The translations under genes were made by a program, and so were the position numbers. Shown one piece after another: positions 22,490 through 23,549 of a stretch of DNA of 64,000 bases. The notes below the pieces were generated by a model that was not told the origin of the DNA, did no database searches, and worked only from the letters and a program-made list of their open reading frames with translations. Source of the DNA: Escherichia coli (GTDB lineage: Bacteria; Pseudomonadota; Gammaproteobacteria; Enterobacterales; Enterobacteriaceae); assembly GCF_003334255.1 (NCBI RefSeq), contig NZ_QOWU01000005.1, one strand, 5' to 3'. Numbering within the stretch: position 1 is the first letter of the stretch; the number at the start of each line of letters is the position of its first letter.

Positions 22490-22902
22490 GATCGTATGTG
22501 CCTTTATGATTGGTCTGTAGATAGTGTAGAGCAGAAAACAAAAGGTGGAGTCAGAACAGGATGAAAGTCGGAGGATAAAAAGTCAGTTCAAGCATGGGTA
22601 ATTCAGTTGTTACCACCAGGAGCTTGCAATGGGGGCAGTGAATGTTAACGGTAGCCACCGGTAAATTTGAAAAAAGAGCAAATATCTAATATTCAACTAA
22701 ACAGTGGCATCTTCAATATACTATTCCAAATATATTAAAGCTCCCATAGGGTTACCCGGAAGGGCCTCTGAGTCTGTAATTCCTACTTATGTAGGAAATG
22801 TTGTACAAAACATTTATTATAATCCTATTCAATTATAATGATCGGCCATTATTATACTTAAACACTAGAGAGTGTCGTTGGTATTTAATGGGGGAAGGTG
22901 AG

Positions 22903-23220
22903 GTGAATAAAATAGCTGCTATATCATTAATTAGTGTTTTTCTTATGTCTGGTTGTGCTGTGCATAATGATGAGACAAGTATCGGTAAATTTGGCCTTGC
23001 ATATAAAAGTAATATTCAGCGTAAACTCGATAACCAATACTACACCGAAGCCGAAGCTTCTTTAGCCAGGGGTAGAATATCTGGTGCAGAAAATATAGTA
23101 AAAAATGATGCAGCCCATTTCTGTGTTACTCAGGGCAAAAAAATGCAGATAGTTGACCTGAAGACAGAAGGTGCAGGATTACATGGCGTCGCTCGTCTGA
23201 CATTCAAATGTGGAGAGTGA
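22903..23220 (+). CDS. yegR: Small lipoprotein YegR
   Basis: 105 aa from a GTG preceded by ggaagg; signal peptide ending in lipobox LMSGC; the track ORF start at 22798 is a long AT-rich in-frame extension. Confidence 0.7.
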   Translation: MNKIAAISLISVFLMSGCAVHNDETSIGKFGLAYKSNIQRKLDNQYYTEAEASLARGRISGAENIVKNDAAHFCVTQGKKMQIVDLKTEGAGLHGVARLTFKCGE

Positions 23221-23378
23221 GAATATTTTTTGGTAAGCGTCAAATATGCGCGTTCTGGTTGTGCTTAGCCGGAACCTGTGCGAGCACGATGCCGTTACGT
23301 GAAAGGCATCGTGCTATGAAGGGAGATTCTATCGATGTGGTCAATGGAAGACGGTGACCAGGGATAGGGCTTATGCAT

Positions 23379-23465
23379 AAAAAATAAGCCCGTGTAAGGG
23401 AGATTACACAGGCTAAGGAGGTGGTTCCTGGTACAGCTAGCATTTTATGGGTTATGTTTTTCAGC
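23379..23465 (-). ncRNA. cyaR: CyaR (RyeE) sRNA
   Basis: Minus-strand sequence GCUGAAAAACAUAACCCAUAAAAUGCUAGCUGUACCAGGAACCACCUCCUUAGCCUGUGUAAUCUCCCUUACACGGGCUUAUUUUUU with intrinsic terminator. Confidence 0.9.
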
Positions 23466-23549
23466 GAAACGGATGATAACCTTAATAAATGCAGCTGTAT
23501 GTGATCGGTTTCTAAGAATTTTCCATCCGGGAAAAATAATCGAAATTAA

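Follow-up and report, generated by a model that had tools for sequence, protein, structure and literature searches.

Whether the compact interval between yegS and yegQ in this E. coli strain is a place that phage DNA never reached, or one that a phage entered and largely left, is the question raised by the yegS-yegR-CyaR region. We examined it within a window of 64,000 nucleotides, to which all positions below refer. The window belongs to the E. coli chromosome: over 22400-23700 it shows 100% identity to strain G1/2, matches 5,425 of 5,426 complete E. coli genomes and shares 94-99% identity with nearly all E. coli. The preliminary description of this DNA had reported the gene order yegS-yegR-CyaR, with CyaR about 160 bp from the yegR stop codon and no open reading frame between them. 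This layout was borne out, the distance from the yegR stop to the CyaR 3' end being 158 bp, and the two mechanical open reading frames of the spacer (49 aa on the plus strand, 67 aa on the minus strand) had no match among NCBIfam or PHROG families. The features of the locus are as follows.

21590-22489, minus strand: yegS (lipid kinase), divergent from yegR; 299-aa open reading frame, RefSeq annotation of G1/2 and K-12.
22490-22581, no strand: yegS-proximal spacer, probably ancestral; alignment of 22302-22581 with yegR-less Escherichia and E. albertii.
22582-23378, no strand: putative E. coli-lineage insertion with yegR, 797 bp, 40.3% G+C; absent from Escherichia lineages L060 and L088.
22903-23220, plus strand: yegR, encoding a 105-aa predicted lipoprotein; RefSeq CDS with the same coordinates.
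23283-23315, plus strand: strong hairpin with an 11-bp stem in the yegR-CyaR spacer; inverted repeat I1, -24.6 kcal/mol, z = -5.1.
23332-23361, plus strand: probable relic of a P2-type attP P arm (Int arm-type site); match to the annotated P2 Int P arm.
23379-23405, plus strand: predicted P2 attachment core (attB) inside the CyaR terminator; 27/27 identity to the P2 attP core.
23379-23465, minus strand: CyaR (RyeE) sRNA, 87 nt; mapped from the annotated K-12 cyaR, Rfam RF00112.
23473-23478, minus strand: predicted cyaR promoter -10 hexamer TATCAT; TANNNT at a fixed distance from TCACA in 115/115 species.
23500-23515, minus strand: putative CRP site TTAGA-AACCGA-TCACA, overlapping the -35 position; motif match and conservation across 115 species.
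23550-24911, minus strand: yegQ/trhP (tRNA U34 hydroxylation protein), upstream neighbour of cyaR; 453-aa open reading frame, RefSeq.

The spacer hairpin at 23283-23315 has no U-tract after its stem.

In K-12 the interval between cyaR and yegR carries ogrK, the yegZ (gpD') pseudogene and the annotated 'cryptic prophage PR-X' (629 bp). All three are absent from the window, as had been proposed; direct comparison put the extra DNA in K-12 at ∼629 bases. Nor did closer comparison reveal a prophage-derived open reading frame between yegR and CyaR, a finding that would have counted against this account. Aligned with K-12 by BLAST, the window fell into two pieces that overlapped by 26 nt at window positions 23371-23396, and we identified the overlap with a core sequence, AAAAAATAAGCCCGTGTAAGGGAGATT, of which the window holds one copy (23379-23405). 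In K-12 this core is complete on the cyaR side, and on the yegR side only its first 18 nt are kept, fused to gene D'. The K-12 order is accordingly partial core (18 nt), D'-ogr-P arm, full core.

A 101-bp probe across the core found the site uninterrupted in 4,143 of 5,426 complete E. coli genomes (76%). The K-12-specific junction of partial core and D' occurred in 358 of the 5,426, and the examples sampled were all laboratory K-12 derivatives; in the remaining ∼17%, about a sixth, the core was interrupted in another way. The one such genome examined, strain ZH177, holds a decayed P2-like prophage with int beside yegR, ogrK beside cyaR and core-like sequences at both prophage ends. The compact form, which had been singled out as a noteworthy state, is therefore the majority state of E. 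coli: the compact arrangement is the norm, and K-12 is the exception, a derived state. The genome paper of E. coli W lists a 'cyaR RNA' insertion site occupied by Wphi2 in W, by 'ogr-D'' in K-12 and by P2*B in strain B, and by nothing in Crooks (PMC3032704). We consider it highly probable that the region studied here shows the cyaR locus of E. coli in its usual, unoccupied state.

The nature of the core explains the position of the K-12 remnant. Positions 23379-23405 match exactly, at 27/27 nucleotides (28 nt in BLAST), the attP/Int core annotated in P2 (AF063097), where it sits between ogr and int. In the window it falls within the terminator hairpin and U-tract of CyaR, and the prophages and remnants found at this place, in ZH177, K-12 (PR-X) and E. 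albertii, have it duplicated at their two ends. Because the CyaR terminator contains the exact P2 attP core, the remnant in K-12 sits where it does. Judged by this identity, the window carries a predicted P2 attachment site in its unoccupied state, which had been missed in the preliminary description. P2 integrase would recombine attP with the chromosome on the last 27 nt of the sRNA gene, its intrinsic terminator, and since the phage brings an identical core, integration would rebuild the CyaR 3' end. The present strain has nothing integrated there, and K-12 retains the 629-bp ogr-D' fragment (PR-X).

We take the cyaR site to be locI of E. coli C, the P2 attachment site that Barreiro and Haggard-Ljungquist reportedly described in J Bacteriol in 1992. 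At locI the same 27-nt core lies at the cyaR 3' end, between yegQ and yegR; P2-like prophages fill it in other strains, their int gene nearest yegR and their ogr gene nearest cyaR. There is no essential difference from the window, whose copy is unoccupied. The arrangement also resembles other RNA genes used as phage or island sites (tRNA genes, ssrA, rybB and sdsR/ryeB), at which the integrase core likewise overlaps an sRNA 3' terminator and the phage copy restores the gene; there is no difference in kind from cyaR. The downstream flank of such sites is a hot spot for foreign DNA, the same as at cyaR (PMC3032704, table; PMC3333887 on sdsR).

The sRNA itself is intact. Rfam model RF00112 matched window positions 23382-23467 over model positions 1-85 of 85 with 100.7 bits (gathering score 47), and a relaxed Rfam search of 22300-23700 returned only CyaR and a spurious sub-threshold snoRNA match. 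CyaR of the window is 100% identical to K-12 cyaR (b4438), and the identity extends base for base over 23379-23549, cyaR promoter included. The predicted fold comprises an 11-bp terminator stem followed by U6 and a small hairpin exposing ACCACC within the conserved loop CCACCUCCU; the rho-independent terminator was also picked up by a terminator scan.

Upstream of CyaR a tgtga half-site had been noted, with the suggestion of a CRP-dependent promoter that had no clear palindrome. The half-site is present, at 23500-23504, 5 nt away from the 23495-23500 first given for it. The suggestion of a CRP-type promoter with a degenerate left half stood; the lack of a palindrome did not, as the minus strand reads TTAGA-AACCGA-TCACA (23515 down to 23500), a two-half-site element of the form TTAGA-N6-TCACA that is conserved across the order. 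It differs from TGTGA-N6-TCACA by two mismatches. At that tolerance (≤2 mismatches) the window held 22 matches against 26 expected, which is not above chance, and the motif count was dropped as stand-alone evidence. Since the motif match alone is at chance level, the significance of the site comes from its position and its conservation. The cyaR loci that we compared came from 115 species, each represented by a single genome and ranging from Escherichia to Photorhabdus, Serratia, Pectobacterium and Rahnella, and were aligned on TCACA itself as anchor. The left half T-T-A-G-A was conserved at 97, 94, 100, 100 and 99%, the next A at 100%, and the GA before TCACA at 100 and 99%. A TANNNT hexamer stood exactly 21 nt after TCACA in 115/115 species; in the window this is TATCAT (23478 down to 23473).

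With +1 at 23465, the 5' end annotated in K-12, the centre of the putative CRP site lies at -42.5 and 29.5 bp before the -10 hexamer; it overlaps the -35 position, which is class II geometry. At galP1 the centre of the CRP site likewise lies 29.5 bp upstream of the first -10 base. Class II CRP promoters share with the window the placement of the CRP site over -35, as does the published cyaR promoter, with which the window is identical through K-12. They have TGTGA as the left half, whereas cyaR has TTAGA, itself conserved across the order; the imperfect left half thus appears to be a conserved, deliberately imperfect half-site. Minus-strand transcription of CyaR would start at a class-II-type CRP-dependent promoter in which TTAGA-N6-TCACA replaces the -35 element and TATCAT serves as -10. 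For the present strain we infer such a promoter from K-12 identity, conservation and published work. CRP control of cyaR is stated in PMC3333887 with reference to Johansen 2008, Papenfort 2008 and De Lay & Gottesman 2009, and CRP dependence is stated again in a 2025 bioRxiv preprint. These elements of the preliminary description, the ogr-D' difference from K-12 and the CRP-dependent sRNA promoter, are already known biology.

The DNA on the other side of the core may have a less ordinary history. We located yegS in 83 of the collected species genomes, and in 61 of these its start is ≤250 nt beyond CyaR, the two genes being co-oriented and yegR missing; the 61 span Serratia, Pectobacterium, Rahnella, Enterobacter, Citrobacter and Klebsiella. 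The same holds within Escherichia for lineages L060 and L088, in which the equivalent of position 22581 is joined straight to that of 23379 (...GGATGAAAGTCGTGGTAC/AAAAAAATAAGCCCGTGTAAGGGAGATT). In the window the corresponding junctions read ...GGATGAAAGTCGGAGGAT/AAAAAG...(797 bp)...GCAT/AAAAAATAAGCCC..., and 22302-22581 aligns with L060, L088 and E. albertii right up to the att core. With AAAAA at both junctions, the boundary of the 797 bp can be placed only to within 5 nt. Since yegS directly follows cyaR in other Enterobacterales and in two Escherichia lineages, we read 22582-23378 as an insertion at the edge of the core. It would be extra DNA of the E. coli lineage, placed exactly where a prophage integrated at the core would be, and it takes in yegR and most of an AT-rich stretch.

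No phage gene was detected in the 797-bp segment, and blastn and tblastx comparisons with P2 D, ogr, int and C gave no match outside 23317-23400. When the interior of the segment was compared with phages and plasmids, it matched only E. coli chromosomal copies. The core copy flanking the segment on the right is complete; the left junction keeps AAAAA only, which is too little to prove a second copy. A candidate second core copy, AAGGGAGATT at 23319-23328, and a possible duplication of the yegS-side flank were both rejected as not significant (52 of 2,000 and 339 of 3,000 shuffles reached the score). The 3' half of the ogr terminator is a better match for the stretch 23319-23328.

Phage similarity is found beside the core, at 23332-23361, which reads TCGATGTGGTCAATG-GAAGACGGTGACCAG; the annotated 'Int P arm' of P2 reads TCGATGTGGTCAATGTGTGGACGTGACCAG. 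The TCGATGTGGTCAATG part is identical to the annotated Int P arm at 15/15 positions, and the alignment continues through GTGACCAG, so that the first repeat is intact and the second degenerate. With the core excluded, the local alignment scored 24 against a shuffle mean of 9.0 and a shuffle maximum of 19; 0 of 2,000 shuffles reached 24. Escherichia sp. MOD1-EC7003 (lineage L110) has the same flank with a fuller arm, including the IHF-site-like ATAAATCCTTCTGTTTCATTG (score 28, 0 of 2,000 shuffles), a part of the arm that is missing from the window. In K-12 PR-X and ZH177 the arm has this same polarity, adjoining the core towards yegR. On these alignments the relic is in all probability genuinely phage-derived. 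The region had been described as lacking a P2-like remnant; this is true of phage genes, and not of the arm, as 23332-23361 reproduces an Int P-arm site.

The gene carried by the segment was characterized from its start codon onwards. A GTG at 22903 gives MNKIAAISLISVFLMSGC..., K-12 has ATG at the homologous codon, and RefSeq annotates the same 105-aa YegR product. An in-frame ATG at 22888, five codons upstream of the GTG, would add MGEGE, an acidic n-region unlike that of a signal peptide, and family members down to 42% identity all begin at the shorter position. The signal reads MNK-IAAISLISVF-LMSGC, with a short basic n-region, a hydrophobic core and the lipobox L-M-S-G-C18. G17-C18-A19-V20 is invariant in the family down to 42% identity, and at position -3 of the lipobox E. 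coli has M where relatives have L or V. The start at GTG with a lipoprotein signal peptide, already favoured in the preliminary description, is thus upheld by the alignment with the K-12 ATG and the invariant lipobox. These features fit a predicted lipoprotein of the signal peptidase II substrate type, and some RefSeq records use the name 'lipoprotein YegR'. Nearly all homologues belong to E. coli or Shigella. Database members 93-96% identical to YegR bear a precomputed match to PF27694 'YegR', and a search of our local Pfam-A, a copy without the PF27694 model, gave nothing significant. Knocking out yegR produced no phenotype in glucose chemostats (PMC3708739). We regard yegR as a probable small orphan lipoprotein gene starting at GTG.

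YegR gave a full-length match to a PHROG family (phrog_21109, E = 3e-72), and an origin as a prophage-derived open reading frame was considered and rejected, the match being an artefact of provirus boundaries. The only copies of YegR in the phage collection came from a 'partial genome' record that also holds yegS and gatR and from one chromosomal junction fragment. In IMG/VR all 80 YegR matches were 94-99% identical and lay at the very ends of provirus contigs. No sequenced phage was found to carry yegR; the copies in phage databases are host flanks of badly trimmed proviruses. Distant homologues (42-59% identity), looked at as possible phage cargo, were never in a P2 context. They sit near mug/rpoD, beside a bestrophin-like gene or in an IS-rich region.

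The composition of the DNA upstream of yegR is in line with the claim that some 400 bp there are strongly AT-rich: 22490-22900 has 38.0% G+C against 51.4% for the window, which places it in the lowest 2.3% of 411-bp windows. Positions 22680-22902 reach 33.6%, and yegR itself has 39%. In a genomic SELEX study the K-12 yegR/yegS spacer is entered with sigma-70 promoters predicted for both directions and with the mark HNS (PMC3946193). Within the spacer of the yegR promoter predicted there, the window carries an insertion of 9 bp (22720-22728). This AT-rich DNA probably acts as the divergent yegR/yegS control region.

Two remnants at the same site offer a comparison. PR-X of K-12 has the same site and polarity, with a truncated left core, internal prophage DNA, a P arm and an intact right core completing CyaR. 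It keeps recognizable D' and ogr genes, the ogr terminator and the IHF site, all of them lacking from the 797-bp segment, in which a single good Int arm repeat is left. Lying between yegR and cyaR, PR-X is inside the older 797-bp segment. In E. albertii two core copies enclose 3.4 kb with a P2 arm and cdtABC. This element lies in the cyaR-yegS gap with its P2 arm beside cyaR, and its left core is nearly complete, unlike that of the window. Because cdt adjoins cos in intact CDT-V phages, we read the E. albertii element as a prophage reduced to cargo and arm. Its cargo is a known moron of P2 phages, whereas yegR has no known phage-borne relative.

In the most likely history of the segment, reconstructed from these comparisons, an ancestor acquired a P2-like prophage at this place, which was later deleted, from inside the left core copy, down to the 797-bp piece; the pattern is the same as that of K-12 PR-X and the E. 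albertii cdtABC remnant. We give an even chance to the claim that the whole 797 bp are the remains of one prophage. Weighing on the other side of that balance are the absence of any detectable phage gene from 22582-23378, the lack of a sequenced phage with yegR, the unrelated, non-phage chromosomal contexts of the distant homologues, and a left junction reduced to AAAAA with the IHF-site part of the arm missing. A rival is a history in two steps, in which P2 had no part in the arrival of yegR and its AT-rich flank, and only the last ∼50-60 bp (23317-23378) derive from a later, almost wholly deleted P2-like prophage. P2 similarity is indeed confined to 23317-23378, and genes of the yegR family occur in other enterobacteria as single-gene insertions at several unrelated chromosomal sites and in no real phage genome. 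However, the left boundary of the 797 bp lies exactly at the left edge of the core, as integrase-mediated insertion predicts, and we saw no lineage with yegR that lacked the arm relic. Two fixed events would be needed in place of one, and the candidate second core copy AAGGGAGATT is not significant. We hold the two-step history to be possible, though somewhat doubtful.

Readings that dispense with an insertion fare worse. If yegS-yegR-cyaR were ancestral for Escherichia, the shorter yegS-cyaR arrangement elsewhere would stem from precise deletions. Deletions do happen here, as Escherichia sp. MOD1-EC7003 has lost most of yegR, and with both cores intact a superinfecting P2 could in principle excise the segment precisely. 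This is nevertheless improbable in the light of the short yegS-cyaR spacing in 61 of 83 species genomes, the 40% G+C of the segment in a 51% background and a YegR family essentially confined to E. coli and Shigella. It is less probable still, to the point of being very unlikely, that the region is pristine, never received phage DNA and resembles a P2 arm by chance, the view implicit in the preliminary description. Its compactness, its conservation across E. coli and its lack of a phage open reading frame would suit such a view; the 15/15 match to the Int P-arm site, on the correct side of the core and in the correct polarity, does not, nor do the 0 of 2,000 shuffles reaching its score with the core excluded and the sister lineage with a fuller arm and an IHF-like stretch.

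If the integrated-then-deleted prophage is the correct history, the site that P2 prefers in E. coli may be no virgin attB: it would be the attR-type scar of a prophage fixed in the E. coli ancestor, and the 797-bp segment, with the species-restricted yegR and promoters driving yegR and possibly yegS, would be what survives of it. We find this proposal evenly poised between holding and failing. If it is true, the surviving Int arm-type repeat might still influence the use of the site by P2 integrase.

The reading of the segment as insertion and scar is a small evolutionary addition, and we rate it as modest. The identity of the CyaR terminator with the att core explains why remnants accumulate there, and the PHROG family for YegR is revealed as an artefact of provirus boundaries. 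A gene annotated as core E. coli, yegR, appears to sit in a segment inserted at a phage attachment core and ending in an arm relic. The cyaR locus would thus illustrate, cleanly and on a small scale, how a prophage decaying at an sRNA gene can leave behind DNA that is fixed and domesticated.

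The terminator of CyaR contains the 27-nt P2 attachment core, and among the species loci compared, P2-arm-like DNA lay directly 3′ of CyaR in 12 of 120 (for example L008, L022, L024, L033, L087, L105 and L107). Since the genera concerned included Enterobacter, Citrobacter and Buttiauxella, among others, the CyaR terminator serves P2-like elements well beyond E. coli. At the E. albertii NBRC 107761 locus (L009 4938-8325), which lacks yegR, the cyaR-yegS gap is occupied by cdtABC, encoding cytolethal distending toxin, together with a P2 arm, and one copy of the att core is present on either side of them. 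A very AT-rich stretch of 27% G+C is located upstream of cdtA.

In the window, the junction of the yegR-carrying inserted segment with the att core is spanned by an 8-bp inverted repeat, GGGCTTAT / ATAAGCCC (23367-23374 and 23384-23391). The repeat takes the position that an IHF-site-like stretch has in Escherichia sp. MOD1-EC7003 (L110). On the CyaR strand it could fold into an additional hairpin, one that overlaps the 3′ stem and U-tract of the terminator. In MOD1-EC7003 yegR is mostly missing, with one 67-bp fragment of the gene in inverted orientation; the P arm, an IHF-like relic and a 170-bp segment are retained (L110 147-700).

The 170-bp segment is AT-rich, contains a 41-codon ORF beginning MHIFILSVMGYSS, and is found as extra DNA directly 3′ of the yegR stop in UTI89, ATCC 25922 and approximately one-fifth of sampled E. 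coli. Its positions are as follows.

Window 23225: insertion point of the segment
L002 (comparison locus) 1328-1498: the segment
L110 (MOD1-EC7003) about 370-560: the segment

Its presence in MOD1-EC7003 as well indicates that the segment was probably deleted in the window and in K-12.

Upstream of yegR, a promoter has been predicted in K-12 as TAAACA-18-TATATT (PMC3946193). Relative to K-12 the window carries a 9-bp insertion, ACTATTCCA, at 22720-22728, which extends the predicted spacer from 18 to 27 nt and thus makes this prediction untenable for the window strain.

D-arabinitol genes adjoin yegS, whereas K-12 carries gatR::IS3 and the galactitol operon at the same position, which is a second strain-variable module of the cyaR-yegR-yegS locus. 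Further elements of the window are listed with this module.

18009-21516, upstream to about 15000: dalD, xylulokinase, RbtT/DalT-family transporter and HAD hydrolase
2561-2657: TPP riboswitch
36827-36969 and 37156-37304: Sib antitoxin RNA, two copies
53118-53156: JUMPstart element

At the Sib position, three ibs genes are present in strain ZH177. ZH177 also encodes a ParD/ParE-type toxin-antitoxin pair between yegQ and yegP (L005 18132-18726), which is missing from the corresponding gap of the window (yegQ end 24911, yegP from about 25058).

YegR has been filed as a phage protein (PHROGs phrog_21109; IMG/VR loci L138-L217; GenBank ON470606.1), and in ON470606.1 the neighbouring YegS and GatR are filed likewise. 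The sole reason for these labels is that proviruses predicted at the cyaR site are drawn too long and take in flanking host DNA, a pitfall when 'phage genes' are called automatically.
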